Assembly: GCA_002392765.1 (NCBI GenBank)
Contig: DGHT01000036.1
Span: forward strand, 2,870 to 66,869
Reading direction: 5' to 3'
DNA: 64,000 nt
DNA from: Verrucomicrobia bacterium UBA3841
GTDB taxonomy: Bacteria > Verrucomicrobiota > Kiritimatiellia > RFP12 > UBA1067
A program made the position numbers and the translations under genes. Of this stretch, positions 4,180 to 51,605 are shown piece after piece; within the stretch, counting starts at the first letter, position 1; each line of letters opens with the position of its first letter. The notes under the pieces were generated by a model that saw only the letters and a program-made list of their open reading frames with translations, searched no databases and was not told the DNA's origin.

Positions 4180-5098
4180 CGGCGACGGGCTTGTCGCCGG
4201 ATTCAGGCGGCATCTGGAGTCGGAGTCAGGCGTATCGCCGAACACGAGTTCGGCGTACCTCGGCGATCTTGCCCAGTTTGCCGCGTTTCTCCGCGATGCC
4301 GGCAGGTCCGCCGGCGACTGGAAAGGAGTTACCGATTCCGATGCGCGCGCCTTCGCGGCGAAACTTGCGAAGGGGGGGGCGGGCGCGACGACGCTCCGCA
4401 GGAAAATCTCGTCCGTGCGCGCGTTTTTCAGATATCTTCTGCGTGAAAACGAAGTCTCCCGCAATCCTTTTTCTTCGCTCAGGGGGCCGCGCGTGCGCAA
4501 AACGCTCCCGAAAACGCTGTCCGTTGCGGATGTCGGCAGACTGCTCGACAGGCCCGCAGCGGATTTCCGCGACGGAATGCTCGGCGAATATCCTTCTTAC
4601 AGGGACAAAGCCGTGTTCGAATTCCTTTATTCGACCGGGTGCCGCGTCGGCGAGATAGCGGCGGTCAAGTGGGGCGACATCGATTTCGCGAGAGGCGGAT
4701 TGATCGTCCGCGGCAAGGGCGGGAAGGACCGTCTGGTGATTCTCGGATCGAAGGCGATCGAGGCGCTCCACTCGCTGCGCAGAGCCGTTTCCGCGAGACG
4801 GGCGAATCTCGCAGGTGACGATTCTCCGGTGTTCCTCAGCGACAGGTTCGGAAAGATATATCCCAGGTTCGTCGAAAGGCGGATGAAAAGGTATCTTGCA
4901 GAAGCGGGTCTTTCCTCTTCGCTTACTCCGCACAAGCTCAGGCACAGTTTCGCCACGCATCTTCTCGACGCGGGCGCCGACCTCAGGAGCGTGCAGGAGA
5001 TGCTCGGCCACGCATCTCTTTCGACCACGCAGATATACACGCACGTGTCTGTCGAAAGGCTTAAAAACGAATACGCAAAGGCGCATCCGCGCGCTTGA
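4154..5098 (+). CDS. xerC: Tyrosine site-specific recombinase XerC/XerD family
   Basis: C-terminal catalytic box HKLRHSFATHLLDAGADLRSVQEMLGHASLSTTQIYTHV, with the RHR triad and catalytic Tyr context. Follows topA as in many genomes. The ORF start is a TTG at 4154, so the true start is uncertain. Confidence 0.8.
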   Translation: MKETSPEFDGDGLVAGFRRHLESESGVSPNTSSAYLGDLAQFAAFLRDAGRSAGDWKGVTDSDARAFAAKLAKGGAGATTLRRKISSVRAFFRYLLRENEVSRNPFSSLRGPRVRKTLPKTLSVADVGRLLDRPAADFRDGMLGEYPSYRDKAVFEFLYSTGCRVGEIAAVKWGDIDFARGGLIVRGKGGKDRLVILGSKAIEALHSLRRAVSARRANLAGDDSPVFLSDRFGKIYPRFVERRMKRYLAEAGLSSSLTPHKLRHSFATHLLDAGADLRSVQEMLGHASLSTTQIYTHVSVERLKNEYAKAHPRA

Positions 5099-25180: not shown

Positions 25181-26578
25181 ATGAATGCAAAGGCATGGAG
25201 GCTCTACGGAGCAAAAGACGCGCGGCTGGAGGATGTTGAACTCGAGAGCGCTGGCGAGGATGGCGTCGTTGTGGAGATCGTGACTAACACGATCTGCCTG
25301 AGCGACTACAAGGGGATTTCCCTCGGAACCGGACACAAGCGCGTACCGAAGGATATAGCGACGAACCCGATTATGTTCGGACACGAGATCTCGGGAATCG
25401 TGCGCGAGGTCGGCGCGAAGTGGGCGTCGCAATTCAAGCCGGGACAGCGCGTCTGCATACAGCCGGCGTTCAACATCCCCGGACACGAACTCGAGACGAT
25501 GGGCTATTCGTGGCATTCAGTCGGCGGCGAGACGACGCACGTCTACCTGCCGTCGATAATCATGGAGATGGGCTGCCTCCTTCCGTACGACGGCGACGCG
25601 TACTTCAAGTGTTCGCTCGCCGAGCCGATAAGCTGCATCGTTTCCGCTTTCCGGTCGAACTACCACCATCCTTTCGGCTCGCACGTCCACGAGATGGGAA
25701 TCGAAAACGGCGGCACGATGCTCCTGATGGCCGGATGCGGCGCGATGGGGCTTGGCTGCATAGACATCGCGTGCCACTCGCCCGAAAAGCGTCCGCGCCG
25801 TCTCGTAGTCACCGATATCGACGATATGCGGCTCGAGCGCGCGGCGAGGATGTTTTTGAGGGAAGAGGGAAGGGGGAAGAGGGAAGAGGAAAGAGGCGCG
25901 ATCGTCGCTTCCGGGAAGGTGAACAATGTAGACGTTTATTTCGTGAATACGAAGAGCGTGGAAAATCCCGTCGCCTACCTCAAGTCGCTCAACAGCGACG
26001 ATCCTGTGGATGCCGCGAATCCGACTTCGACTGGCGGCGGATACGACGACATCTTCCTCTTTGCGGCCGTTCCCGCGCTCATCACGCAGTGCTCGGACCT
26101 GCTGGCGTTCGGCGGATGTCTCAACTTCTTCGCGGGGCCGACGGACCAGAAGCTCTCCGCGCCGTTCAACTTCTACAACATCCACTACATGAACCACCAC
26201 ATCGTCGCCAACTCCGGCGGCGACGTGAAGGACATGTCCGACTCGGTCGACTGGATCGGCAAAGGATACCTCCATCCCGAGGTGATGATAACCCATGTCG
26301 GCGGACTTTCCTCCGCCGCGCAGGCAACGCTGGATCTGCCCAACATCCCGGGCGGCAAGCGTCTCGTGTACACGCATGTAGACATGCCTATGGTCGCAAT
26401 CTCCGACTTCGCGGAAAAGGGCAAGTCCGATCCTTTCTACGCCGAACTCGACCGCATCTGCACCGCGAACAGCGGGCTCTGGTGCAAGGAGGCGGAGGAC
26501 TTCCTTCTTGCAAACGCGCCGAAGATTTCCATCGGCGCACCGAAGGAAAAGATCGTGGAGCGGCGGATCGTGCTGTAA
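25181..26578 (+). CDS. Zinc-dependent alcohol/polyol(-phosphate) dehydrogenase (MDR family) carrying an in-frame Glu/Arg/Gly-rich insertion
   Basis: GHEISG catalytic-zinc motif, GCGAMG Rossmann motif. 465 aa. Inserted FLREEGRGKREEERGA is encoded by a (GAGGGAA)n purine repeat at 25853-25900. Confidence 0.7.
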   Translation: MNAKAWRLYGAKDARLEDVELESAGEDGVVVEIVTNTICLSDYKGISLGTGHKRVPKDIATNPIMFGHEISGIVREVGAKWASQFKPGQRVCIQPAFNIPGHELETMGYSWHSVGGETTHVYLPSIIMEMGCLLPYDGDAYFKCSLAEPISCIVSAFRSNYHHPFGSHVHEMGIENGGTMLLMAGCGAMGLGCIDIACHSPEKRPRRLVVTDIDDMRLERAARMFLREEGRGKREEERGAIVASGKVNNVDVYFVNTKSVENPVAYLKSLNSDDPVDAANPTSTGGGYDDIFLFAAVPALITQCSDLLAFGGCLNFFAGPTDQKLSAPFNFYNIHYMNHHIVANSGGDVKDMSDSVDWIGKGYLHPEVMITHVGGLSSAAQATLDLPNIPGGKRLVYTHVDMPMVAISDFAEKGKSDPFYAELDRICTANSGLWCKEAEDFLLANAPKISIGAPKEKIVERRIVL

Positions 26579-27708: not shown

Positions 27709-28679
27709 AAATGGAAAACACTTCCAGACGGGATTTCATCCGCAACGGTTTTGCAATGGTCGGGGCCGGGATGTCCGTTATCGCTGCGGCGGACTCCGCC
27801 GCGGCATCGGGCGCACATGAAGCCGCCGGAGATCCGGCTCAAGGGCTGGACGTCACGGCCGATTCCGAGACTCGTTCCGCGTCCGCCCGCAAGCTTAAGG
27901 TCCGCTTCCTCGGCACCGGCGCGATCGACTGGGAGCGCGGGCCGAACGAATTCGGGGAAACGCGCCGTTTCGCGAGCGTGCTGGTGAACGGGAAAGCGCT
28001 TATCGACCTGACAGGACGCACTCGCGAGATGCTGCCGGAGGGATGCCGTCCGGAAGCAGTGTTCTACACCCACTCGCATCGCGACCACTTCGACGCAGAA
28101 GCCGCTCTTTCTCTCGGCGTCAAGCGCGTCTACTGCCACAAGTCGTGGGCCAAGACGGCTGTCGAGAAATTCGAGCAGGCGGCGAACGGACGTCCCGTTC
28201 CCGAAGTCAACGGCATCGTATTCGGCGCGCCGGTCCCCGTATGCGGCACCATGTTCACCGCGCTTCCCGCAAACCATTCCACGAAGCGCAAGGGAGAACA
28301 TTGCGCCATCTATCTTATCGACAAAGGGCCGGCGCGCCTGCTTTACGCGACTGACACTTGCGGCATTCCGCGCGACGCGCTGAAACACGCCGGACTGGAG
28401 CGGAACGCAGGCCGTCCGCTCACGGCGATAATCATGGAAGCGACTGCGGGAATCGGACAGGAGGACAATCCGCGCTTCTTCTTTTCGCATTCGTCCGTCG
28501 ATCTCGTGGCGAGAACCGTCCGCGCCCTCGCAGCGACAGGACGCTACCGTCCGCCGGCTTCGCGTCCCGTCTATATCACGCATCTTATCCGGTCCCAGTA
28601 CGCTTCGATGGCCGAGTTGGAGAATACCCTCCCCGCGCCGCTCAAAGCCGCATACGACGGTCTGGAAGTGGAGTTTTGA
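27705..28679 (+). CDS. Tat-exported MBL-fold metallo-hydrolase
   Basis: Tat motif SRRDFIRNGFAMVGAG. YTHSHRDHFD. C-terminus AYDGLEVEF, paralogous to the 11887 MBL protein. ATG overlaps the PfkB stop. Confidence 0.7.
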   Translation: MKMENTSRRDFIRNGFAMVGAGMSVIAAADSAAASGAHEAAGDPAQGLDVTADSETRSASARKLKVRFLGTGAIDWERGPNEFGETRRFASVLVNGKALIDLTGRTREMLPEGCRPEAVFYTHSHRDHFDAEAALSLGVKRVYCHKSWAKTAVEKFEQAANGRPVPEVNGIVFGAPVPVCGTMFTALPANHSTKRKGEHCAIYLIDKGPARLLYATDTCGIPRDALKHAGLERNAGRPLTAIIMEATAGIGQEDNPRFFFSHSSVDLVARTVRALAATGRYRPPASRPVYITHLIRSQYASMAELENTLPAPLKAAYDGLEVEF

Positions 28680-28752
28680 GCCTCCGCCCGGCGGCGATAT
28701 CAAGGAGATGCGGCATCCTGCCGCGTCCCTTTGCAAAACCTGCTTGTTTGTC

Positions 28753-28825
28753 TCACGCAAAGTACGCAAAGTTCGCAAAGCAACCATAGAAAAGAAACTT
28801 TGCGCGCTTCGCGAACTTGGCGTGA
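28753..28825. repeat. Palindromic element B copy 1: three tandem 9-mers (tcacgcaaag tacgcaaag ttcgcaaag), 16-bp spacer, three inverted 9-mers
   Basis: Direct read. Near-identical copy at 51340-51412; related copies at 30105-30172 and 43688-43761. Confidence 0.7.
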
Positions 28826-28944
28826 AATATATTCGGAGGGCAAATACCTCCAATGACAACAATCCCACAATTCCTCAGTTCCATCTTCCCTCAATTAAAG
28901 TCGAAAAAGTGTCATAGGACACTATGCTTTCACCGTCCTTCTTT

Positions 28945-28953
28945 TGCTATAAT
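28945..28953 (+). promoter_or_regulatory. Extended -10 TGCTATAAT promoter for the regulator gene
   Basis: 22 nt before the ATG at 28976. Confidence 0.4.
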
Positions 28954-28975
28954 ATTGGTGAAAGCAGGGTCGAGT

Positions 28976-30073
28976 ATGTCGGAAAACAAAGCAACTGCAA
29001 TCGCAATCGCCATCAAGAAGAAAATCGAAGACGGCAAATACGGCGCGGGCAAACCGCTGCCGAGCGTCCGGGCTTTGATGCGCATGCACTGCATAGCGCG
29101 TTCCACGGCAAACCGGGTTCTGCAGGAACTCGCCCGAATGGGTGTCGCGCGCCTGCGCAGAGGCGCGGGAACGTTCGTGAACAAACATGCCGCATCCCGG
29201 AAGATCGGACTGATCGTCCCCGGCGTCGCGGTCACTGATTTTTTCAAGCCCGTCGTCAGCGAGATCAACAACCTTGCGCGCGATGCTGGATACGACCTCC
29301 TTTTCCGCGAGGTGTGGAGCGAGAACCGCGAGGAGCGCATTGCGCAGGTGCGCGAGTTCGCCGCGGAGTTCGTAAAGGGCAATTTCGCGGGCGTGATCTA
29401 CGAGCCGCTTGCGGGGCCGATAGGCGACGAGATCAACCCGCGCATCCTGTCGGTGTTCGACAAGAAGAACATACCGGTCGTCCTCCTCGACTGCGACATC
29501 GTGCCGTTCCCAGAACGAAGCCACTACGACGTCGTCGGCGTAAACGACCTCGAAGCCGGAGCGCGGATTGCGAAGCACCTCTTGGACATCGGCGCGAAGC
29601 GCATACACTTCCTCATCTGCTCGCTTTGTCCGACGACTTTCTCGAACAGGCTCGCGGGAGCGGAGTCGCAGCTGAAGCTCGCGGGCGTGAAGATTCCGAA
29701 TGGCGGGAACGTGCTCTACGCCGAGGCGGACGACCTCAAGGCGCTGAAGCGCTACCTCAGGAAGCAGACGCGGCGACCGGACGCGTTCATCTGCAGCAAC
29801 GACGCCATCGCGGCGGTCTTCAAGCAGACTCTGGAGAAGGCAGGCCTTCGCGTTCCGGAGGACGTGATGCTCACCGGCTTTGCCGACCTTTCCGTCGCAT
29901 CGCTCATGACTCCGCCATTGACAACGATCCGCCAGAACCGCGAGCAGATGGCGCAGGCCGCGTTCCGGCGGCTGATGGATCGAATCGAAAATCCGTCTCT
30001 TCCTCCGTGCGACATCTTCCTCCCCGCGCCGCTTATCGCTCGCGGATCGACAACAAAAGGCTGTTCAAAATGA
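28976..30073 (+). CDS. Hybrid transcriptional regulator: GntR-type winged HTH fused to a LacI/periplasmic-binding-protein-type sugar sensor domain
   Basis: N-terminal KPLPSVRALMRMHCIARSTANRVLQEL (GntR HTH). Remainder is a type-I PBP fold (IGLIVP..., DAFICSNDAIAAV, VMLTGFAD). Confidence 0.7.
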   Translation: MSENKATAIAIAIKKKIEDGKYGAGKPLPSVRALMRMHCIARSTANRVLQELARMGVARLRRGAGTFVNKHAASRKIGLIVPGVAVTDFFKPVVSEINNLARDAGYDLLFREVWSENREERIAQVREFAAEFVKGNFAGVIYEPLAGPIGDEINPRILSVFDKKNIPVVLLDCDIVPFPERSHYDVVGVNDLEAGARIAKHLLDIGAKRIHFLICSLCPTTFSNRLAGAESQLKLAGVKIPNGGNVLYAEADDLKALKRYLRKQTRRPDAFICSNDAIAAVFKQTLEKAGLRVPEDVMLTGFADLSVASLMTPPLTTIRQNREQMAQAAFRRLMDRIENPSLPPCDIFLPAPLIARGSTTKGCSK

Positions 30074-30104
30074 ATGACTTGATGGGAAAATCTTGTTTTT
30101 GGCA

Positions 30105-30172
30105 TCACGCAAAGTCCGCAAAGTTCGCAAAGTTTCTTTCAGGACTTCGCGGACTTGGCGAACATTGCGTGA
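30105..30172. repeat. Palindromic element B copy 2, between the regulator and GH29
   Basis: tcacgcaaagtccgcaaagttcgcaaag ... acttcgcggacttggcgaacattgcgtga. Confidence 0.65.
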
Positions 30173-31599
30173 GAATTAAACTCGCCTTCGCATTGCTGTG
30201 CGTATTTTCGTCCGTTATTGCCACAGCGACACCGCGTAGGCTTTTCGCCGAGACTCCAGCGCAGAAGGCCGAGCGTCTTTCCTGGTGGACGCACGACCGC
30301 TTCGGCATGTTCATACATTTTGGACTCTATTCGCTTCCGGCGCGCGGCGAATGGGTGAAGATGACCGAGCGCAAGGATATGAAGGAGGAGAAGTATCAGG
30401 AGTACTTCGACAATTTCAACCCCGACCTCTTCGATGCGAAGGAGTGGGCGAAGACGGCGAAGGCGTCCGGAATGAAATACGCCGTCCTTACGGCGAAACA
30501 CCACGAGGGCTTTTGCCTCTGGGACTCGAAGTTCACGGACTACAAAATAACCAACACCGCGTTCAGGCGCGACATCGTAAAGGAGTTCTGCGAGGCGTTC
30601 CGCGCCGAGGGCATTCGCGTGGGGCTATACTACTCGCTCATCGACTGGCACCACCCCGATTTCACGATCGACGCCCGCCATCCGCGCATGCCGCCGGGGT
30701 GCCGTCCCGCCGACCCGTCTGGAACCGTCGGCGGAGAGGAGACTTGGAAGCGCATCAACGCCGGAAAGGACATGAACCGCTACCGCCAGTATATGAAGGA
30801 TCAGGTCGGCGAACTTCTCACAAACTACGGGCGCATTGACATCGTCTGGTTTGACTTTACCTATCCTAACGACGGCGGGCACGGCAAGAGCGCGGCGGAC
30901 TGGGATTCGGAAGGCCTTCTCAAATACGCGCGCAGCCTCCAGCCGTGGATTATCGTAGACAACCGCCTTGGGCTTACCGACACGGCGGACGGCTGGGATT
31001 TCGTGACGCCCGAGCAGTTCAAGGTCGAGAAATGGCCGACCGTGAACGGTGAGCGCGTACCCTGGGAGACGTGCCAGACGCTGTCGGGCAGCTGGGGATA
31101 TGCCCGCGACGAAATGACGTGGAAGACGACGGAGAATGTCCTTGCCACATTGATCCATTCCGTCTCGAAGGGCGGCAACATGATCCTGAACATCGGCCCC
31201 ACGGGGCGCGGACGCTTCGACTTCCGCGCCGTGAGTCACTTGAAGGACATCGCGGACTGGATGGATCTAAACTCGCGCTCGATCTACGGCTGCACGGAAG
31301 CGCCGGAGAAATTCACGCCGCCGGAGAATACGGTTCTTACGTACAATCCCGAGACACGCCGGCTCTACATCCATCTCCTGGCCTATCCCGGCGGACGCCT
31401 CGCCTGTCCGTTCGCCGCCGACGTCGCCTACGCGCAGTTCCTCCACGACGCATCCGAAATCACGCTCGAACGTCACGGTACGGCTGCGGAGCAGACGCAG
31501 GAATTCTACAAGAGCGGCAACGAAGGAGTTTCCTACTTCCTCCTCCCCGCCGTCAAGCCCGACGTCCTCATACCCGTAATCGAGGTGATGCTAAAATGA
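30169..31599 (+). CDS. Alpha-L-fucosidase, GH29
   Basis: WTHDRFGMFIHFGLYS, TAKHHEGFCLWDS and GLYYSLIDW GH29 blocks. Signal peptide VRIKLAFALLCVFSSVIATA from GTG 30169. An alternative ATG at 30070 (ATGA overlap with the regulator stop) would read through element B and add a 33-aa pre-signal extension. Confidence 0.75.
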   Translation: MRIKLAFALLCVFSSVIATATPRRLFAETPAQKAERLSWWTHDRFGMFIHFGLYSLPARGEWVKMTERKDMKEEKYQEYFDNFNPDLFDAKEWAKTAKASGMKYAVLTAKHHEGFCLWDSKFTDYKITNTAFRRDIVKEFCEAFRAEGIRVGLYYSLIDWHHPDFTIDARHPRMPPGCRPADPSGTVGGEETWKRINAGKDMNRYRQYMKDQVGELLTNYGRIDIVWFDFTYPNDGGHGKSAADWDSEGLLKYARSLQPWIIVDNRLGLTDTADGWDFVTPEQFKVEKWPTVNGERVPWETCQTLSGSWGYARDEMTWKTTENVLATLIHSVSKGGNMILNIGPTGRGRFDFRAVSHLKDIADWMDLNSRSIYGCTEAPEKFTPPENTVLTYNPETRRLYIHLLAYPGGRLACPFAADVAYAQFLHDASEITLERHGTAAEQTQEFYKSGNEGVSYFLLPAVKPDVLIPVIEVMLK

Positions 31600-31625
31600 G
31601 CCAGACGCGAGAGTCTTTTTCCAGC

Positions 31626-31652
31626 CGTGTAGAACGTGTAGATCGTGTAGAG
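31626..31652. repeat. Left terminal inverted repeat: (cgtgtagNN)x3
   Basis: cgtgtagaacgtgtagatcgtgtagag; its reverse complement matches 33077-33103 at 25 of 27 positions. Confidence 0.8.
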
Positions 31653-31763
31653 CCTTTCTACATGTTGCTTTCGCTTCTGGGAGTTTCGGAGTTTGGGAGA
31701 TTCAAAAGACTCCTATACTCCAAAACTCCCAGCAACGAAAGTGAGAAAATGATGTGCGGTGTT

Positions 31764-32873
31764 CTACAGCCGCTTGAGCCACAGGCCGAAGAATCTGTCG
31801 TAGACGACGTATCCCGCGTCCGACCGGTAAAGAAGGTCGCGTTCCGTCAACTTGGCTGCTGCGGATCGGACTGTGGAAGCGGCCGGGAGCTTGTTGCGCC
31901 TGATAAAATCTCCGCCGGATATGGACTTTGCAACACCCTGTCTGCCGACCGCCTTCAGGATGGATTGTTCGGCGGGAGTCTGGCTTCGCAGAAGGTCGAA
32001 GTAGAACGATTCCGATTCCGCAACGAGTTCATCCACGGTATCATCGACCTGTTGGACGGAATCGAGTCCGCTACCGTGCGTCCAGACGCGGTTGAGGATG
32101 CTTTGGATGTACCACGTTATTCCCTCGAAGCGTTCGTAGAGATGGCGAAACGCCCCTTCCGAGAAGGTGCGTCCTTCGCGGCGGAAGAACCCCTCGGCGA
32201 ATTGCCCGTACTTTCCGGCGTCGATGGTGCCGAGAGCCATGAGCTGCGTGCTTTGGTAGAAAGGACCCTTGGGCGAGACGAACATGGCGTCCATCATGTG
32301 TTTCCTGGAGCCTGCGAATATGAAATGCGCGTTCGGAACGAATTGGATGTAGCTTCTGAGAAGCGCCTCCGCCCCCTTTTCCGGAAACTCGCGAACCTGC
32401 TGGAACTCGTCGATGGCAATCACGACCTTGCGCTTGCGCGACGCGATGTAGTCGAAAGTGTCCTTAAGCGTGGCCTTGGCCTGCGACGGCGCGAGGTCGA
32501 AGGAAAAGGAGAAGGATCCGTCGTTGTTCGGCGTAAGCGTCGGACGGCAGCTCTTGAAGAACGAAAGAATCTTTCTCCCGACGCGCTCCGCCGGGGAGTC
32601 GAGCCTGTCGAGGACTGTGGCGGCGAACGTCTGCACGAACGAAGTGAGGTCTTCGATAGCGAAGATGTCGAGATAGACCGTCGCATGGGTCTTCTCGAGT
32701 GTCCGGAAGGCGTTGTGGACGAGACCGGTCTTGCCGTAGCGGCGCGGCGCGACGAGCGTCACGTCCCTTCCGTTGGAGATCGCGGAGACGAGCTTTTGCG
32801 TCTCTGCGGCGCGGTCGCAGAAGTACTCAGGCCCCGCGTAGCCGCGTATCAGAAAAGGGTTGTCGAGTTTCAT
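31764..32873 (-). CDS. AAA+ ATPase of the archaeal-ATPase / DUF234 type
   Basis: Walker A APRRYGKTGL. Walker B-like VVIAIDEFQ. C-terminal DUF234-like winged-helix region. ATG (MKLDNPF) at 32873, preceded on the minus strand by TTTGATATAAT 7 nt upstream. Confidence 0.7.
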   Translation of the reverse strand: MKLDNPFLIRGYAGPEYFCDRAAETQKLVSAISNGRDVTLVAPRRYGKTGLVHNAFRTLEKTHATVYLDIFAIEDLTSFVQTFAATVLDRLDSPAERVGRKILSFFKSCRPTLTPNNDGSFSFSFDLAPSQAKATLKDTFDYIASRKRKVVIAIDEFQQVREFPEKGAEALLRSYIQFVPNAHFIFAGSRKHMMDAMFVSPKGPFYQSTQLMALGTIDAGKYGQFAEGFFRREGRTFSEGAFRHLYERFEGITWYIQSILNRVWTHGSGLDSVQQVDDTVDELVAESESFYFDLLRSQTPAEQSILKAVGRQGVAKSISGGDFIRRNKLPAASTVRSAAAKLTERDLLYRSDAGYVVYDRFFGLWLKRL

Positions 32874-32880
32874 GCGCAAT

Positions 32881-32891
32881 ATTATATCAAA
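32881..32891 (-). promoter_or_regulatory. Extended -10 TTGATATAAT (minus strand) for the ATPase, leaderless spacing; a 19-bp perfect palindrome gcgacgaaattttcgtcgc lies at 32918-32936 in the -35 region
   Basis: Direct read of the reverse complement. Confidence 0.45.
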
Positions 32892-33076
32892 AATTCGCAC
32901 GTTGCGACGAAATTTTCGCGACGAAATTTTCGTCGCAGAAAAGTGGTGCGTTCAAAATCGTCTCATCTTTCGTGTATTTCGCGTATTTCGTGGTTCCATG
33001 AACCGCCTACAATTGCCGCGAAAATGCAAGTAGAAGTGCCGCGAAAGTTAAAGTAAGGAGTGCGGCATGATGACGC

Positions 33077-33103
33077 AACTACACGATCTACACGTTCTAC
33101 ACG
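33077..33103. repeat. Right terminal inverted repeat: (NNctacacg)x3
   Basis: aactacacgatctacacgttctacacg. Confidence 0.8.
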
Positions 33104-33131
33104 TCAAAAACAACAAACAAGGAGAAAGGAA

Positions 33132-34829
33132 ATGAAAACGATACAACTCGGATGCAAGCGGCTGATAGCGGCCGCAGTAGTTGCGGCTGCGTTCGCGGCA
33201 AAGGCCGAAACGGTCGTGTGGTACACGTTCGACGATCTCGGCGACGTCGGAACGACGCTCGCCGATTCGTCGACGATCCAGAACAAGGCGAACCCCGGCA
33301 CGCTCGACGCGACAGTGTACGGAATGAAGGGCAAGGACAAGTATGCGAGTTCCGTCAACAGGCCGTATGTCGCGAACGGCGTGCCGGAGACACTGCGGGT
33401 CCTTGATCCTGTCAGTAAAACCATCGCTGCATCCGCCGACAAGGCATTGAGCTTCCCATGCACCAGTCCTGGCGGTCAGGGTGCGCTGCTTGAGACACCA
33501 AACGATTCTGCGTTCCGCCCGTCGTCGTTTACCGTTGAAATGTTCGTCCGCCTCACGGAGGGGCGCTCTAACTGGCAGATGCTTGCCTGTCAGCCGTCAA
33601 CTACGGCCGATCGCTACGGATGGGCGATTAGCCTTTACAGACCAGCCGACAACAGTTACTCGAGCTTCCGGTTGAATTTCGTCGATACCGAGGGAAACAA
33701 CTACCAACATGGCATCGGTAAAAATGAAGGTTCCAATGTCTTTCTCGACTACAAGTGGCACCATATCGCGCTCGCTGTCACACCCCAATCCGGCGATCCG
33801 TCCAAGATCAACATAAAGTTCTTTATAGACTACGTGAGGGTTTACAATTATGATGCACCTTACGGCATCGTTCTTCCCGATTCTGCGGACTGCCCCGTGC
33901 AGATTGGCGGCACGACAGTTACAGGACAAAACTTTATGGGTGAGATTGGCGAATTCAGGTTCTCATCAGGAGTGCTTGATCCCGGCGAGTTCCTTCGTCC
34001 GCACAACGCGGCGATAGACAAAGACGTCGTTCTCTACTACGACTTTGAGGATACTGATGCATACGACGGCAATTTCGCCTATAGCACAAACAGCGCAAGC
34101 GATGTCGTAAACAAGGCCTCTCCAATCATGCCCGGCGCATTCCAGAAGACAGTAGGGACCGACAGCAAGACGTACCCTTTCATTGACGAGGCGTCGCCAG
34201 GCCACAGGGTGCTTCCGTCGCAAAACGCAGAAAGCGAGAGAACGATGAATTCCACTCATGCATTTAGAAATGCGTCATATCGGGTTGTCGGCTCAAACAC
34301 GTCGCGGCTCAAGTGCACACCGGCGTATGCGGATATCTTCCGCGACACGGAGGATTTTACCGTCGAGATGTTCTACAAATGCGGCGAAAAGGAATACAGC
34401 GATGAAACGATTGTGCAGCAAGCAAAACTCTTGTTTATCCCTGGACAGTTTGAAGTAGGTTTTGCCAACCCCACGGCACAGATGATACCCATTCTTAAAA
34501 CCTCGGAGGGCAACGTCATGTTTTCGTCGGGAACGCGTGTGGATGATGGCAAGTGGCACCATATAGCCGTGGTTGTGAAACAGTCCGGCGATTCGAAGAC
34601 ATTCAGCTGGTATCATGACGGCGATCTCTACAATAATCAGAGCAAGACGTTCTCGGGAACTGTGTCCCCCATGAGTTCTTCAGATGCAGTATGGCACATC
34701 GGAACGAACAACGGAGGGCGTGCGTTTGACGGCTGGATCGACTCTTTGCGTGTGACCTTGCGTGCGCTTGAGCCGTCCGAGTTCTTGCGGGCTGAGAAGC
34801 GGCAGGGATTGGCCATTGTATTCAAGTAA
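33132..34829 (+). CDS. Secreted protein with two concanavalin A-like/LamG (Laminin_G_3) domains
   Basis: Shine-Dalgarno AAGGAGAAAGG. Signal peptide. Blocks YKWHHIALAV and DDGKWHHIAVVV typical of LamG jellyrolls. Confidence 0.65.
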   Translation: MKTIQLGCKRLIAAAVVAAAFAAKAETVVWYTFDDLGDVGTTLADSSTIQNKANPGTLDATVYGMKGKDKYASSVNRPYVANGVPETLRVLDPVSKTIAASADKALSFPCTSPGGQGALLETPNDSAFRPSSFTVEMFVRLTEGRSNWQMLACQPSTTADRYGWAISLYRPADNSYSSFRLNFVDTEGNNYQHGIGKNEGSNVFLDYKWHHIALAVTPQSGDPSKINIKFFIDYVRVYNYDAPYGIVLPDSADCPVQIGGTTVTGQNFMGEIGEFRFSSGVLDPGEFLRPHNAAIDKDVVLYYDFEDTDAYDGNFAYSTNSASDVVNKASPIMPGAFQKTVGTDSKTYPFIDEASPGHRVLPSQNAESERTMNSTHAFRNASYRVVGSNTSRLKCTPAYADIFRDTEDFTVEMFYKCGEKEYSDETIVQQAKLLFIPGQFEVGFANPTAQMIPILKTSEGNVMFSSGTRVDDGKWHHIAVVVKQSGDSKTFSWYHDGDLYNNQSKTFSGTVSPMSSSDAVWHIGTNNGGRAFDGWIDSLRVTLRALEPSEFLRAEKRQGLAIVFK

Positions 34830-34835
34830 GGCGAG

Positions 34836-35720
34836 GTGCGAGTGAAACCCTTTCATTCTTTGCTGACGGTTGTCGTTTCGCTCGGTGCGATGCCGCTCCT
34901 CGCAGGCGAGCGGTCTGACGCGTTTGTCTCGGCGGCGCGCAAGGCGTATGCCGCCGACCCGATGTGTCGCACGACGGTCGTGACCAACTTCGTTGTCAAG
35001 GGAACGCCTGACGACAAGGCGCCGGGCCTGGTTCGGTGGTACGACGTCGAAGGCGCGCGGAACGTCCGCGACATCGGCGGCTGGACCGGCCTTCGGGCGG
35101 GCAGGGTGTTTCGCGGCACGGAGCTTAATTCGAAGCCCAATCACAAGCAATACGAGTTGACCGAGCGCGGCAGGGCGGTCATGCGCGGCGAGATGGGCAT
35201 CGTGTCCGATCTCGACCTTCGTGGGGAGATAGCGGAATACGGCGAAGACGCCAAGACGAAAAGCCCGATTGGCGAGGGATCGCAACTCTTGAGCCGTCCT
35301 GTCAGTTCGTATGTCGAAACCTGCACCTCGCCACGTTCCGCCAAGGCGTTCGCGAATGCCCTCCGCGTGTTTGCCGACGAAAAGAATTTCCCCGTCTACG
35401 TGCATTGTGCGGGCGGCGCGGACCGCACGGGGACGGTGTGCTTCCTTTTGGAGGCGCTGTGCGGCGTGTCGCTCGAAGATGCGGAAATCGAATACGAGCT
35501 TACGAGCTTCTCGCCGGTCGGCATGCGCCGCCGGAACAGCGAGACGGGGCTTCCGTTCGCGCTCATGGTGCGGCTCATTTCTACCTTCCCCGGCGAGGCG
35601 TTCGCCGATAAGGTTGCCTATTGGGCCGAGAACGTCGCCGGACTTACCAAAGACGAGATCGCGCGCATCCGTGCCAATCTCGTGAATGCGCCCGGCGCGG
35701 CGAAAGCGGCCGACTTGTGA
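34836..35720 (+). CDS. Secreted protein-tyrosine-phosphatase-fold (CX5R) phosphatase
   Basis: Signal peptide MRVKPFHSLLTVVVSLGAMPLLAG. P-loop VHCAGGADRTG (HCxxGxxRT). General-acid region WYDVEGARNVRDIGGW. Confidence 0.65.
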   Translation: MRVKPFHSLLTVVVSLGAMPLLAGERSDAFVSAARKAYAADPMCRTTVVTNFVVKGTPDDKAPGLVRWYDVEGARNVRDIGGWTGLRAGRVFRGTELNSKPNHKQYELTERGRAVMRGEMGIVSDLDLRGEIAEYGEDAKTKSPIGEGSQLLSRPVSSYVETCTSPRSAKAFANALRVFADEKNFPVYVHCAGGADRTGTVCFLLEALCGVSLEDAEIEYELTSFSPVGMRRRNSETGLPFALMVRLISTFPGEAFADKVAYWAENVAGLTKDEIARIRANLVNAPGAAKAADL

Positions 35721-39631: not shown

Positions 39632-41139
39632 AATTGGTATTGGCAACACTGGCAACACTGGCAACATTCGCCGCGACAGCGGCGGAGACTTTCTGCAATC
39701 CCATGCCGATTCCGGACACGCCCGTCGGCATACTCTGCCGCGACAGCTTGAACGGCGACGCGATTCCCGAAATCGCATGGCAGAAAGATTGCTGGACAAA
39801 TGCCGCCTGCGGTTTCAAGGAGGTGCGCCAGTTCCGCGAGCTTGCCGATCCGGTCGTTCTCGCCGAGGGCGACACATGGTATCTCTATTCGAGCGCGGGG
39901 CTTATGTGGACCAGCGACGACTTCGGCGGCACATGGCGGCATGTGGGCGTGCAGGCCGAAGCCGACTATGCGCCCGCAGTCGCCAAGTTCCGCGGCAAGT
40001 ACTACCTTTGCACATCAGGCGGACCGCTGAGCGTGGCCGATTCGCCCACGGGTCCGTTCCGGACGCTTGGCGCGTTCGACAAGAAGTCGTTCTCGTCCGA
40101 TTCGCAGATGCCGCACACCCTGGATCCGGCGCTTTTTGTCGATGGCGACCATCTCTATCTTTACTGGGGATGCTTCGCAAAGCCGAAGGCCGTCTGGTGC
40201 GTGGAGCTAGATCCGGAGAATCCGCTTCGCGCAAAGACGCCCGGCTCTGCCGTCTGCCTCGTCGAGTTCGACACGGAAAGATATCCGTGGCTCGACAGGC
40301 TGATCGAGGGCGCGTGGGTGTTCAAGCGCGACGGCACGTACTACCTCACGTATGCGACCTACGGAACGGAGGATTCGCGCTACTGCTGGTGCGCGATGAA
40401 AGGTTCGGGTCCGCTCGGGCCGTTCGTCCCGCAGAAGAACAATCCGTTCTTCATGACGGAGAAGGGTCTTGTCACAGGAACAGGCCACGGCTCTATCTGG
40501 TGCGATAAAAACGGAGACTGGTGGATCAACAGCTGCGTGTCTGTCGCAGCCTATCACGGCTTCGAGCGGCTGATCGCCCAGGATCGTCTCTTTTTCGAGC
40601 CGGACGGGGATATTGCCGTCGGCAAGGCTACCGAAACGCCGCAGTGGCTTCCGTCCAGCGGCAGGAAGGGCGGTACGGGATGGAAGGCGATACCGCTCAA
40701 GTCCGACAGAAGCGCGGCGACCGACATGAGCATCAAGACGTGGTCGACGGTCGAGAGTCTGCCGTCGAAGACCGTTTTTGAGTTCCCCGGAGAGAAGACG
40801 ATCCGAGCGTTCCGCGTCATCTGGCGCGACATCGGGCTCGACACGAATCGCGGCATCTTGCCGGGGCCGTATCGCTACCGCGTGGACTATCGCTCGAACG
40901 GTGTCTGGTGGACTTGGCTCGACGCCTCCAAGAACGACGTAGATCTCATGGTGGACTACCGCGAGGCGCCGGAGGCGGTTGCCGACGCGGTTCGACTTGT
41001 CGTCCTCTCCGCCCCGCCTGGCATCACTCCAGGGCTCGTGGAGTTTACGGTCTTTGGCTGTATGTTGGGGGAATTGGGAAGAGGTTCCCCATTCCCCGTT
41101 CCCCTTTCCCAGTTCCCCATAAAAGGAGACCAACCATGA
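39628..41139 (+). CDS. GH43 five-bladed beta-propeller glycosidase with a C-terminal beta-sandwich domain
   Basis: ADPVVLAEGDTWYLYSS (catalytic base Asp), LDPALFVDGDHLYLYWG, IEGAWVFKRDGTYYLTYA (acid Glu). The last ~25 aa (GELGRGSPFPVPLSQFP) are encoded by a gggaa/ccccgttcccc repeat. Confidence 0.75.
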   Translation: MKLVLATLATLATFAATAAETFCNPMPIPDTPVGILCRDSLNGDAIPEIAWQKDCWTNAACGFKEVRQFRELADPVVLAEGDTWYLYSSAGLMWTSDDFGGTWRHVGVQAEADYAPAVAKFRGKYYLCTSGGPLSVADSPTGPFRTLGAFDKKSFSSDSQMPHTLDPALFVDGDHLYLYWGCFAKPKAVWCVELDPENPLRAKTPGSAVCLVEFDTERYPWLDRLIEGAWVFKRDGTYYLTYATYGTEDSRYCWCAMKGSGPLGPFVPQKNNPFFMTEKGLVTGTGHGSIWCDKNGDWWINSCVSVAAYHGFERLIAQDRLFFEPDGDIAVGKATETPQWLPSSGRKGGTGWKAIPLKSDRSAATDMSIKTWSTVESLPSKTVFEFPGEKTIRAFRVIWRDIGLDTNRGILPGPYRYRVDYRSNGVWWTWLDASKNDVDLMVDYREAPEAVADAVRLVVLSAPPGITPGLVEFTVFGCMLGELGRGSPFPVPLSQFPIKGDQP

Positions 41140-44100
41140 ACAAAGCAATCGCATCTCTCGTCTGCATCGGCGCCGTGTGCACTGCGCTGGCGGATTGGAC
41201 GCTCGAGCGTAGCGCGGCTAAGGACGGGCTTTTGATGACGGACGGCATCAAGCCCGGGTCGTATTATGTGAGGCTTGAAGGATTTTCGGGTGACGACGCG
41301 ACCACCCGCGCCAAGGTGTGGCACGAGGGCCGGCGTATCGAGTTCGTGCGCGGCGGGCCGTGGATGGACGACAACGGCAAAGAGCTGATGACGCTCGAGT
41401 CGCGTCCGGTGGAAGTCAAACCGGGCGAGGCGTTCCGTGTCGACAAACAGACTCCGTGGACGCGGATCGTCCTCGCCGAAAAGCCGCTCGACTACGCGCC
41501 GCAGCGCGTATTCACGAACATGGCGCTCGACCCGGAAGTCGCTTTCGCCGCGGAGGCAGATTTCGGCGTGTCGAACGTGGCCGTGACGCTCAACAGCTAT
41601 CTTGGTTCGGCGGTCAAAGGACGGCTCCGAGTGAAGGTGACGGACTACTACGGCAAGACGCTCGCAGAAACGGATCGCAGGGACGTCGAGCTGGGAAGGA
41701 CGCTTAAACTCGATGTCCCCTACGAGGACAACGGCTCGGGGCAGTTTCGCGCGGCGGTCGGCTTCACGGACGGATCCGGACGCAAGGTCTATCGCGTCTT
41801 CGCGCGGCTTGCGGACGCAAAGTCGCCGCACCGCGAGCTTCTGAGGATGAACGAGGGATGGACGCGCGTCTCGGGCAAGAAGGCCGTGATGCCCGCCGAG
41901 GTAAAGGACGGCGCGGAGAAGTTCAGCGGCACTTTCGCGGTTCCGGCCTCGTTCGCCGGAAAGCGCATATTCTTCAAGGCGCTCAGGATTTCGTGCGTTG
42001 CGAAGCTTTACGTCAACGGCGCGGAGGCGGCGACGTTCGGCGAGGACGGCAATTTCGCGGGCGATATGGAGGCGGACGTGACGCAATTCGTCAAACCGGG
42101 CGAGACAAACGAATTCGTCATCGACGCGAAGCGCGCGGACGAAGAGAAGTATCCCAGCGGAATGCCGGGACGCCTCTCGGCGGTTTCCGAACTTGCGCTG
42201 GAGGCGCGCGGCGAAAACGCAATCGGCCGTGTTTCGGTCGTGACGTCGTTCCGCGAAAAGACGATTCGCGTCAAGGCGGAGCATCCGGCTGGCTTTACCG
42301 TGCGAAACTCCGTATGGCGCGGAGACGAGAAGCTTCTTTCCTTCGCGGACGAATCCAAGTGGGAGAATCCGCCGCTTTGGGGCCCCATCAACTTTCCTCT
42401 CCTCAAGCTCGTCACTGAACTTGTCGATGCCAAGGGGAATGTCGTGGACGAGAAGCTGACGCGTTTCGCGTTCCGCGAGTTCTGGCCGGACGGCATGGCG
42501 CTCATGTGGAACGGCCACCGCGTGAAGGGTGAAGCGCGGGCGTTCATCAGCACGTGGGGGTGGTGGGACTTCGACAGGCGCTGCAAGCGCCAGTTCAACT
42601 GCGACATCCTATGGGAAGGCAAGCTGCGAGGCATCAAGTTTCTGCGGCACGTCTACAACTCGTCGGAGTTTCTTGATTTCTGCGACGAGGCGGGGATTCC
42701 CTGCGCCGTAGGTTTCGCGACGATCGCGAATCCATCTCCCGAAAAGAGCGCGAACAAGGAGTTCTGGGCGTGGAAGGAGTACAACGACCGCTGCCTCGCC
42801 GCGACCCTGCGCAACCATCCGTCTGTCATGACGTGGTATATCACGAACGAATACTACGCCGAGAGCGAAGACCGCAATCTGGGGCCAGTCCAGTCCGCGC
42901 TGAGGAACATCCGCGCGTTCGATCCGTTCCACTTCGCCGAAACGGGCTGCGACCTCGATCTGCGCGGCGAGAACAACATAATCTCGACGCACTATCCCGT
43001 CGAGCTGCTCTCCTTGCGCAAGGCCGGGTGCTACATGCCGTATTCGTTCTACTGGCGCGATATCGAAAAGCCTTTCGTGAAAGGGCAGGCGATTCCCTCC
43101 GGGCAGATCCTGAAGGTCTGCAACATCTACGCCGATTCGCCGGCCAAGTGGGGCGAGAAGCCGATTTTCATCAACGAGACGTGCTGGGACTTCTTCTTCA
43201 ATCCGCCGTTCGGATGGACGCGCCTTGCGGGCGACGAGGTTTTCAACGATCCAAGATACTGCGACAAGTGGCACATCGAGACGGAAGTCGAGGCGGTGCG
43301 CGGGCATCGCGATGCAGACGTGACGCTCTGGACGCCGTGGCGCTGGTACCACATCGACCCCGAGTGGCGCGTTTCGCCGGAGATTGACGTCGTGAATATC
43401 CAGCGCTATTCGCGCTTTTACGAGGGGACGGAGGTCAAGTACGACGTCAACGTGTTCTACGACAGGTGGCGTCCCGCGACTGTGACGTGGTTCTGGCGGC
43501 TTGAAGACTCGGAAGGCAAGACGGTTGTCTCGTCCAAGGATGAGCGGATAGACGTTGACACGTCCGCGTTTATCAGAAAGCAGATTTCCTTCAAGGCGCC
43601 AAAGCCTGGTGAATACACGCTTGTCTTCGGGTTGAAGGGAGTCTGCGAGAAGACGCTTGACATTGTGTCTAGTTCGCGGTTTATGTCTCACGCAAAGCTC
43701 GCAAAGGGCGCAAAGTCGTCTGGCGAAGATGAACTTCGCGGGCTTGGCGAACTTGGCGTGAGAAAATATGCCAATGTATTCGGAGTGCGCGACGTCCTTT
43801 CCGAGCGGCTGCTTGACCGCGCGGCGGCAGGCGAGACCATCGTCATCCTCGCGCGGGACGACTACCCGGAGTGGCTGCCGGAGATACCGTCCGTATCCGA
43901 CCAGTCCGCAGCGATCCTGCGCACGTACAGAACGCGCCATCCGATACTGAAAGGGTTCAAGAAAGACGACCTCAAGTATTTCTATCCGAAATCGATCGCA
44001 TGCGACAGGGCGTTTGCGAAGCCTTCGGGCGGCAACGCGAAGACTGTTCTCGAATTCGGCGGCGCGTCGGGGCTAGTCTATTCCGCGCTTGTCGAAGTGC

Positions 44101-51209: not shown

Positions 51210-51285
51210 CTGGGAAAGCACCCCTGCCAGGGCATCCGCGTTGCGGACAACCTTCGGTTGGGGAATATGGTATCCTGCTGGCGAT
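51091..51285. repeat. GC-rich repeat element A copy 2 (a partial third copy lies at 51480-51550)
   Basis: Matches the reverse complement of 27437-27610. Interrupts the duplicated segment relative to 28614-28876. Confidence 0.6.
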
Positions 51286-51339
51286 ATCAAGGAGATGCGG
51301 CATCCTGCCGCGTCCCTTTGCAAAACCGGCTTGTTTGTC

Positions 51340-51412
51340 TCACGCAAAGTACGCAAAGTTCGCAAAGCAACCATAGAAAAGAAACTTTGCGCGCTTCGCG
51401 AACTTGGCGTGA
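51340..51412. repeat. Palindromic element B copy 4 (identical to copy 1; part of the segmental duplication)
   Basis: Identical arms and spacer to 28753-28825. Confidence 0.7.
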
Positions 51413-51605
51413 AATATATTCGGATGGCAAATACCTCTAATGACAACAATCCCACAATCTCATAATTTCATAAACGAGCGGGACGGTCGGCTTTCCCAGT
51501 TACCTCTTTCCTCGCAACGGGCGAGACGCCCGTTCCCCCAGTTATTCACGGAGCGGGACCTTACAACTCCTTGGAAGCCGCAATTTCACATTTTACACTT
51601 TATTT

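Follow-up and report, generated by a model that had tools for sequence, protein, structure and literature searches.

Two copies of a dispersed micro-repeat probably form the inverted repeat around a separately inserted ATPase gene in Verrucomicrobia bacterium UBA3841

A stretch of 64,000 nt from contig DGHT01000036.1 of Verrucomicrobia bacterium UBA3841 (GCA_002392765.1, positions 2,870 to 66,869 of the forward strand; hereafter the window) was analysed around a minus-strand AAA+ ATPase gene, which is located between a GH29 gene and a LamG gene of a plus-strand operon and is bracketed by a 25-bp inverted repeat. In an initial annotation, made from the sequence alone, ATPase and repeats had been read as an inserted module with the repeats as its boundaries. 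The two arms of the inverted repeat are probably independent copies of a micro-repeat spread throughout the lineage, which flank a separately inserted ATPase unit and are not the ends of a cassette. On this account the 'cassette' is a coincidence of two unrelated dispersed elements, and independent residence is the simplest explanation because of the general behaviour of the arrays and of the ATPase unit, each of which was followed through other genomes. Coordinates of all features are collected in Table 1, and compared loci are designated by L numbers.

Results

The two arms and the micro-repeat family

The arms are 100% complementary over 25 nt (31626-31650 and 33079-33103, spacing 1,428 nt) and complementary at 25 of 27 positions over three full units, in agreement with the near-perfect 27-bp repeats of three 9-bp units described initially. 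Each arm contains three CGTGTAGA-N nonamers, corresponding to 2.9 tandem copies of a 9-bp unit. The 8-mer core CGTGTAGA occurred five times in the window, in every case within the two arms (expected 1.0), and a two-unit CGTGTAGA pattern was matched four times against 0.33 expected, a number attained in 0 of 100 shuffles.

Both arms are members of a dispersed family, composed of a (T)TTAGC head followed by three CGTGTAGA-N units. Scanning of one genome per bacterial species with the CGTGTAGANCGTGTAGANCGTGTAG pattern returned at least 119 stretches, nearly all from about 35 species-level metagenome-assembled genomes (MAGs) of rumen or gut origin, labelled Kiritimatiellae, 'Verrucomicrobia', 'Lentisphaerae' or RUG; many of them carried several copies (RUG12478 at least 18 arrays). 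The few matches in unrelated phyla, runs of one unit variant, appear to be tandem repeats that arose by chance. Aligned copies share a core of about 34 nt, with the head followed by CGTGTAGAA, CGTGTAGA(T/G) and CGTGTAGA(A/G), and the flanks on both sides are unrelated. Run length was 110 times three units, twice four and once five. The arrays are usually solitary, and no ATPase homologue was detected by tblastn in any of the at least 119 array stretches.

Genes around the arrays were called with a simple codon-usage scorer for open reading frames (ORFs), for which the genes called on the source contig served as a control. By these calls, 98 of 124 arrays were intergenic. Both orientations relative to neighbouring genes were common; the configuration with the head facing a gene start was the commonest and about twice as frequent as the reverse, and 17 of the 51 head-to-start arrays were positioned 10-40 nt from the start codon, as is the array at LamG in the window. 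An adjacent inverted partner forming a hairpin was present in about 10% of arrays. Clustering of 305 neighbouring proteins revealed no gene family enriched within 1.5 kb of the arrays, the largest cluster having four members of GxxExxY/PD-(D/E)XK-like appearance, and a mobilising gene beside the arrays was rejected on these grounds. Array pairs are not rare and were found once each in L017, L061, L034 and L053/L101; in L034 an inverted CGTGTAGA pair (686-710 and 2346-2370), 1.6 kb apart, encloses the glutamyl-tRNA synthetase gene gltX, and a C-5 cytosine methyltransferase gene comes after it.

Arrays were present at matching sites in different species-level genomes. The conservation of array versus flank at these sites was dropped as evidence of selection, because every locus had been chosen by an exact array match. 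Homology between matching loci often stopped exactly at the array (L037/L068, L115/L124, L014/L099, L061/L073, L017/L053), and in one member of matching-locus pairs arrays were duplicated or extended; this pattern suggests that arrays are rearrangement breakpoints. Comparison of the array with 150 nt on either side further placed it, in L010, L041, L045, L092, L094 and L103 (five genomes), within a larger dispersed unit, in which GTTGCAAAACC..TTTG.T.GC precedes the array and a conserved ORF of some 55 aa (MEDKGESGGKYRLGSHWQTIQ...) begins about 75 nt after it; the upstream flanks are unrelated, and the ORF gave no Pfam match.

No Rfam family matched the array, and a scan of 28000-35000 at E ≤ 1 yielded chance miRNA-like hairpin matches only, so that an Rfam identity of the locus was discarded. 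A sigma-70 promoter or terminator role of the arms was likewise rejected, as nothing resembling a promoter was detected and terminator-like sites were no more frequent than expected by chance; for array plus head as a -35/-10, extracytoplasmic function (ECF) or sigma-54 promoter the spacing, judged by eye, was unfit. The motif strings were not found in the literature searched, nor was a paper on intergenic tandem repeats of Kiritimatiellae.

Dispersal of the ATPase unit

The ATPase gene recurs independently of the arrays. By blastn, homology between its copies extends from the first base of the palindrome upstream of the gene to the stop codon, at 75-96% nt identity and with unrelated flanks. 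The copies in L219, L134, L218, L127, L125, L128, L136, L135 and L137 cover 31762-32937 to within about 3 nt, with 75-94% identity; in the most divergent one, L137, homology ends 13 nt short of the stop codon. In total the unit was encountered in about seven other genomic contexts, and proteins 88-96% identical to the ATPase were found in unrelated contexts. In L125 and L128-131 the ATPase is, as in the window, the lone opposite-strand gene in a co-directional string. Since homology ends at the palindrome and at the stop codon, inside the arms, the arms do not bound the module; no inverted repeats bracketing the other copies were found. The search for further copies proposed with the initial annotation returned, in these other contexts, the unit 31762-32937 and not the whole cassette.

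No target-site duplication was detected at the junctions of the ATPase unit when empty and filled sites were compared. An integron gene cassette was rejected on the grounds that the unit has its own promoter, ends at the stop codon and sits singly in unrelated operons, and no attC site was found for either the unit or the arrays. In L218, sequence of a GH29 3' end is present on both sides of the ATPase copy (2960-3037 and 4183-4290), as a 66-nt fragment just upstream of the palindrome and as a GH29-like 3' end downstream, and the 11-nt spacer after the ATPase stop codon is identical in L004, L218 and L219; remnants and common spacer may be a trace of movement or recombination of the unit.

Three states of the GH29/LamG locus

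Three states of the locus were distinguished among relatives. Neither ATPase nor arrays are present in L220, L217, L214 and L215/216 (state 0), whose GH29 genes are 78-90% nt identical to that of the window; here GH29 overlaps the next gene or is at most 53 nt away from it, the next gene being LamG in L214, L217 and L220. The GH29 gene of L220 is 90% nt identical to its window counterpart. State 1 was seen in a close relative, represented by the independently made assemblies L004 and L005, in which the ATPase unit occupies the same site with neither array; the unit lies 11 nt from the GH29 stop codon, the same 60 nt are found upstream of the palindrome, and the long hairpin and the 23-nt repeats are also missing. 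The window and L001-L003 (state 2) have the ATPase, both arrays, the hairpin and the 23-nt repeats.

The ATPase insertion is therefore polymorphic, as the inserted module of the initial annotation implies, and the empty sites sought at that stage exist (L220, L214, L217, L215/216), so that an ancestral arrangement common to all relatives is not what was observed. The 27-bp repeats as bounds of that module did not stand, L004 and L005 being armless. Between window and L004 the ATPase region is 96% identical and the GH29 genes 88%, which means that the insertion is younger than the divergence of the flanks or was exchanged between lineages. Gain and loss of the arrays both need two events, and parsimony thus cannot tell their order.

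The ATPase gene, its promoter and its fold

The placement of a single minus-strand ATPase gene between the arms and between GH29 and LamG was borne out. Its product scored 39.3 bits against Pfam ATPase_2 (PF01637; cut-off 33.2 bits) and also matched AAA_14, AAA_16 and AAA_22. Of the earlier description as a DUF234/archaeal-type ATPase, the archaeal-type ATPase_2 fold was retained, and DUF234 (PF03008) was given up, with no Pfam match at E ≤ 0.001; DUF234 is a PD-(D/E)XK family (PMC3424549), and this domain is lacking here. The Walker A and B residues (G47 K48 T49 and D155 E156) were invariant across 56 homologues. The AlphaFold model (predicted local distance difference test, pLDDT, 87) comprises an AAA+ domain and a C-terminal winged helix, the latter with helices 300-312, 321-326 and 332-344 and a two-strand wing. 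Best Foldseek matches of the model were the archaeal PF01637 proteins 2qen (PABY2304) and 2fna (SSO1545), followed by 2qby, Orc1/Cdc6 on origin DNA.

An extended -10 box, TGATATAAT (32889-32881, minus strand), ends 7 nt short of the ATG (32873-32871), which gives the leaderless layout proposed initially. The 19-bp palindrome at 32918-32936 was also recovered (9+1+9) and turned out to be part of a 14-bp direct repeat (two copies, 32904-32931) over and upstream of the -35 position. Across the wider ATPase family (to 41% identity, including Bacteroidota-like gut contigs) the promoter layout was kept in every gene: a direct or palindromic repeat and then, separated from the ATG by only a few nt, TGnTAnAAT (or a Bacteroidota-type box). 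The upstream repeat sequence co-varies with the ATPase protein across phyla, e.g. catggcgaaattttcgtgacgaaattttcgccatgg and cgcattttgcgtatcgcattttgcg (L139-L157, 150 nt upstream), and its position beside the promoter is constant. As judged from these sequences, the ATPase appears to be a self-contained, leaderless and probably auto-regulated gene, the winged helix of which would bind the co-varying repeats beside its own -35 (GCGACGAAAATTTCGTCGC repeats).

Concerning a link to defence, as had been suggested for checking, PADLOC gave weak matches only (PDC-S27, E 7.6e-4; PDC-S01, E 2.2e-3), and searches with the ATPase against NCBIfam and PDB sequences returned nothing. The family was rare on plasmids (20 records) and phages (2 records). 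Neighbours of the ATPase copies were carbohydrate-active enzyme (CAZyme) genes, with a RelB/PIN pair at one locus. On account of the weak matches and the CAZyme neighbourhood, a role as known anti-phage defence component was rejected.

Tandem words beyond the array, and in-frame copies in enzymes

The three-fold CGTGTAGA-N array is the commonest of a genome-wide set of short tandem words with 7-9-nt units, typically in three copies; sister words include ACGCAAAGT, CATGTAGAA, ACGCAGAG, GTTTAGA, CACGGAATA and others. Tandem Repeats Finder (period 6-10) detected 80 arrays per 100 kb in Kiritimatiellae loci versus 27 per 100 kb in other gut loci, and in the former a period of 9 and three copies were dominant.

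Arrays fell within called ORFs in 26 cases; all 12 in sense orientation read RVERVDRVE, and of the 14 in antisense orientation 11 read STRSTRSTR. A number of these ORFs are probably artefacts produced by the repeats. Two clear enzymes carry in-frame arrays. Compared with homologues of solved structure, the array adds 8 aa to a DegT aminotransferase (L013:3086-3110) and 5+2 aa to a GT2 glycosyltransferase (L029). The DegT loop, situated just before the catalytic-lysine motif FSFHPTK, is hypervariable: in 120 orthologues (P0241-P0360, 78-100% identical) the stretch from DAAHAFGV to KSIGCCGDMSMFSFHPTK comprises 32-62 aa. It contains one to three RVE/HVE units (RVERVDRVE, HVEHVDHV), NAETQRSREAE from ACGCAGAG, EPRNTLNTRK from CACGGAATA, KRFERFEKFEG and several others, and words of this loop occur also in intergenic array flanks. 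Array copies in coding loops decay, both through point mutations and because entire units are lost.

Discussion

Weight of the favoured explanation

The favoured course of events is as follows. The ATPase unit (~1.18 kb), presumably a stand-alone transcription unit, entered a fucoside-utilisation operon in antisense orientation at the junction of GH29 and LamG, and two new spacers were thereby created; in the lineage of the window each spacer holds one array and other repeat words, with the heads outward. Two arrays with outward heads read as a 25-bp inverted repeat. The arrays themselves would be a non-autonomous sequence that is copied to new sites and retained where it is harmless, i.e. in spacers, 5' leaders and, in two tolerated frames, hydrophilic loops. 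In modelled read-through RNA the 25-bp helix of the arms closes the whole segment; any effect of the pair, such as this duplex or a rare inversion of the segment, would be a by-product, and evidence of such an effect was not found.

Several points weigh against this explanation. Both arrays are missing together in L004, and a degenerate two-unit array is found upstream of the ATPase copy in L219. No CGTGTAGA arrays other than these two are present in the 64 kb, and the gene that they enclose is the sole antisense, inserted one. The arms share their unit order (ninth base A in the first unit and T in the second), which weighs little because this is also the family consensus. Conservation estimates are biased by the selection of array loci by exact pattern match, the ORF scorer is crude, and most data are from MAGs or short contigs. 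Finally, independent residence explains neither the function of the arrays nor the copying route of either element; a transposase, target-site duplication, attC site or enriched neighbour gene that could account for copying of either one was not found in the loci analysed.

As a candidate mobile element the locus is ordinary, and the tempting call of a cassette bounded by inverted repeats is removed: in a genome full of one micro-repeat, a lone gene can come to be flanked by a perfect 25-bp inverted repeat simply on account of that abundance. In the literature searched, both the repeat system and the ATPase gene unit seem undescribed. The words recur identically across species, fill spacers and are translated in enzymes, which renders some protein loops hypervariable, and Orc1/Cdc6-like ATPase genes with a co-varying operator and a leaderless-type promoter occur as precise 1.18-kb insertions, often antisense in carbohydrate-utilisation operons. 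Both features affect the annotation of these rumen Kiritimatiellae MAGs, in which ORFs contain translated repeats and assemblies are interrupted where repeats occur.

Alternative explanations

A broader reading, held only tentatively, takes arrays and sister words together as undescribed ultra-short copied elements of rumen and gut Kiritimatiellae, which a dedicated templated mechanism would write in a three-unit size; joined to it is a second possibility, that the 1,175-bp ATPase unit, which has fixed ends and no recombinase, spreads by a site-precise process. With templated copying, words could remodel spacers and in-frame enzyme loops, such as the DegT loop rebuilt from different words, and may mark recombination breakpoints.

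It is rather improbable that the arrays are cis-elements for a lineage-specific DNA- or RNA-binding protein, with the pair insulating or processing the operon on either side of the antisense gene. A binder of three-fold symmetry would be compatible with three 8-nt cores spaced at 9 nt, and cleavage of a long-range RNA duplex by RNase III, pausing or termination may be involved. The invariant 8-nt core with its free ninth base, the strict preference for three units (110 runs against 3 longer ones), the occurrence at matching sites in different species-level genomes, the roughly two-fold excess of heads toward gene starts with its 10-40-nt group, and the closing 25-bp helix of the modelled RNA are all in line with such a role. 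On the other side, both orientations to transcription are common, copies in coding loops decay, the otherwise identical L004 locus lacks arrays, neither an Rfam match nor an enriched neighbour family was obtained, and the conservation at matching sites is biased by the exact-pattern selection of loci.

That the arrays are sites for a site-specific invertase or RecA, so that flipping of the segment toggles antisense interference with GH29 and LamG, is very unlikely. Inversion would suit the layout, in which perfectly matching 25-bp inverted repeats, 1.43 kb apart, enclose a gene that has its own promoter and lies within an operon, and the breaks of homology at arrays could mean that these are recombination-prone. 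However, all assemblies with the locus (three loci shown, five contigs) have a single orientation, a recombinase was absent among the genes scanned within about 5 kb, and most arrays are solitary, so that inversion cannot be their general role.

The least likely alternative is a 1.48-kb mobile cassette with 27-bp inverted-repeat ends, moved in trans by a transposase and with its ends secondarily lost in L004: multi-unit terminal repeats are known in some transposons, the perfect 25-bp repeat encloses one inserted gene and close relatives lack the ATPase, but other ATPase copies share 31762-32937 only and have flanks free of inverted repeats, in L004 and L005 the same site holds the ATPase but no arms, the at least 119 other arrays are solitary or around unrelated genes and never near an ATPase, and neither transposase nor target-site duplication was found (flanks ...ttccagc / array and array / tcaaaaa...). 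Their absence had already been remarked on in the initial annotation, and the sole supported ORF, an ATPase_2 protein, and flanks free of direct repeats are in keeping with it; an insertion sequence or transposon with terminal inverted repeats was rejected for this lack of duplication, this ORF content and the position of the dispersed unit inside the arms.

Comparison with known systems

Arrays of this kind resemble several repeat classes but fail the defining structural features of repetitive extragenic palindromic (REP) sequences with their bacterial interspersed mosaic elements (BIME), of short tandemly repeated repetitive (STRR) sequences and of Rickettsia palindromic elements (RPE). REP/BIME and REPIN doublets of Enterobacteria and Pseudomonas are sequences of ~30 nt, high-copy, lineage-specific, mostly extragenic and strain-variable, and form mosaics with other repeats. 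Like these, the arrays are short, dispersed, of high copy number, lineage-specific and mainly intergenic, they form mosaics with other repeats and differ in presence between close relatives, and about 10% are inverted doublets or hairpins; unlike these, the array is a direct triple repeat and not an imperfect palindrome, it is found also in frame inside genes, and no RAYT-like (Y1 transposase) or other family is enriched within 1.5 kb. RPE are palindromic selfish DNA of 100-150 bp in protein-coding genes. The arrays share with them the presence both between genes and in frame inside conserved enzymes, where a hydrophilic loop is added (DegT, GT2), but the insert is 27-34 nt of direct repeats, and the same loop is remodelled repeatedly with different words. 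Cyanobacterial STRR heptamers are lineage-specific as well, and short tandem arrays of 7-9-nt units at many loci are a common trait; phylum and unit sequences differ, and the array has a three-unit preference and a non-repeated head, TTTAGC.

In Borg extrachromosomal elements, tandem direct repeats pervade genes and intergenic DNA, are in frame in genes and make new disordered protein segments, and they are reported to arise independently at each site (PMC9879509). The array words are likewise tandem, direct, intergenic and in frame within genes; they differ in that identical 27-nt arrays occupy more than 100 unrelated sites and are found across species. The ATPase resembles PF01637 and archaeal Orc1/Cdc6 proteins in its AAA+ core with C-terminal winged helix, and Orc1/Cdc6 genes in adjoining repeated sites that it may bind. 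It differs from these proteins in being bacterial, dispersed over many contexts and devoid of DUF234, with its repeats at its own promoter and no evidence of an origin function.

Further features of the window

Table 1. Positions of the features in the 64,000-nt window, and contexts of ATPase copies at other loci
Feature	Position	Strand	Remarks
Left arm, nonamers CGTGTAGAA CGTGTAGAT CGTGTAGAG	31626-31652	+	preceded by head ttccagc; 27 nt past the GH29 stop codon
Right arm, nonamers CGTGTAGAA CGTGTAGAT CGTGTAGTT	33077-33103	-	head tttttga; head side 28 nt from the LamG start codon
Dispersed ATPase unit (operator-like repeats, promoter, ORF)	31762-32937	-	1,175 bp; stretch common to ATPase copies elsewhere
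ATPase ORF	31764-32873	-	369 aa; Orc1/Cdc6-like AAA+ domain and C-terminal winged helix; Pfam ATPase_2; single supported gene between the arms
Promoter/operator region	32874-32937	-	extended -10, 14-bp direct repeat (x2), 19-bp palindrome
GH29 alpha-L-fucosidase gene	30070-31599	+	upstream operon neighbour
LamG (Laminin_G_3) gene	33132-34829	+	downstream operon neighbour
Small hairpin, third nonamer of left arm and TTCTACATG	31644-31664	+	TTCTACATG is a partial inverted partner 'word'; pairing uses G.U/G.T
Long imperfect hairpin of GGAGTTT-type heptamers	31668-31741		arms 31668-31699 and 31710-31741, 32 nt, 84% complementary
CGTGTATTT-type tandem nonamers	32968-32990		found also in the array-less relative L004
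Extra segment leading into the right arm	32985-33076		23-nt direct repeat (x2) at 33008-33053; absent from L004
ACGCAAAGT x3 hairpin elements with imperfect inverted partner	28755-28840, 30108-30170, 43691-43760, 51342-51430		directly upstream of genes, including regulator and GH29
Duplicated 179-nt segment	28693-28871, 51280-51458		98% identical, 22 kb apart
TGGCAACAC x3	39641-39666		in frame, LATLATLAT in a signal peptide
GAGGGAA x5.6	25858-25896		in frame, LREEGRGKREEERG inside an ADH_N-family dehydrogenase gene
ATPase copy L128-133			between a GH28 gene and an esterase
ATPase copy L127			adjoins an AraC regulator
ATPase copy L125			beside a Peptidase_C10 gene
ATPase copy L218			after a RelB/PIN toxin-antitoxin pair; 95% aa identity
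ATPase copies L134, L219			further unrelated contexts

The hairpin at the 3' end of the ATPase gene, initially placed at 31668-31686/31723-31741, is real, but its extent had been drawn too small. It belongs to a second dispersed repeat family, the arms of which recur in L012 (three times), L072 (three times), L064 and L146, and it is missing from L004. The GGAGT-word hairpin that follows the ATPase of the window was also found in L146 (1680-1780), immediately after the stop codon of an ATPase with 52% identity. For the extra segment leading into the right arm no match was found among the other loci compared.

The plus-strand string around the locus also holds genes for a PfkB kinase, a GntR/LacI-type regulator, a phosphatase, a GDSL lipase and a second GH29 enzyme. 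The contig is of rumen or gut metagenome origin, and a Kiritimatiellae MAG holds the closest named protein. In the window TTGCAAAACC precedes the ACGCAAAGT arrays; the 179-nt duplicate contains TTGCAAAACC, the ACGCAAAGT hairpin and the beginning of a GntR-type coding sequence. In the ACGCAAAGT hairpin at GH29, the 3' arm ends with the triplet GTG, which is the likely start codon of the gene.

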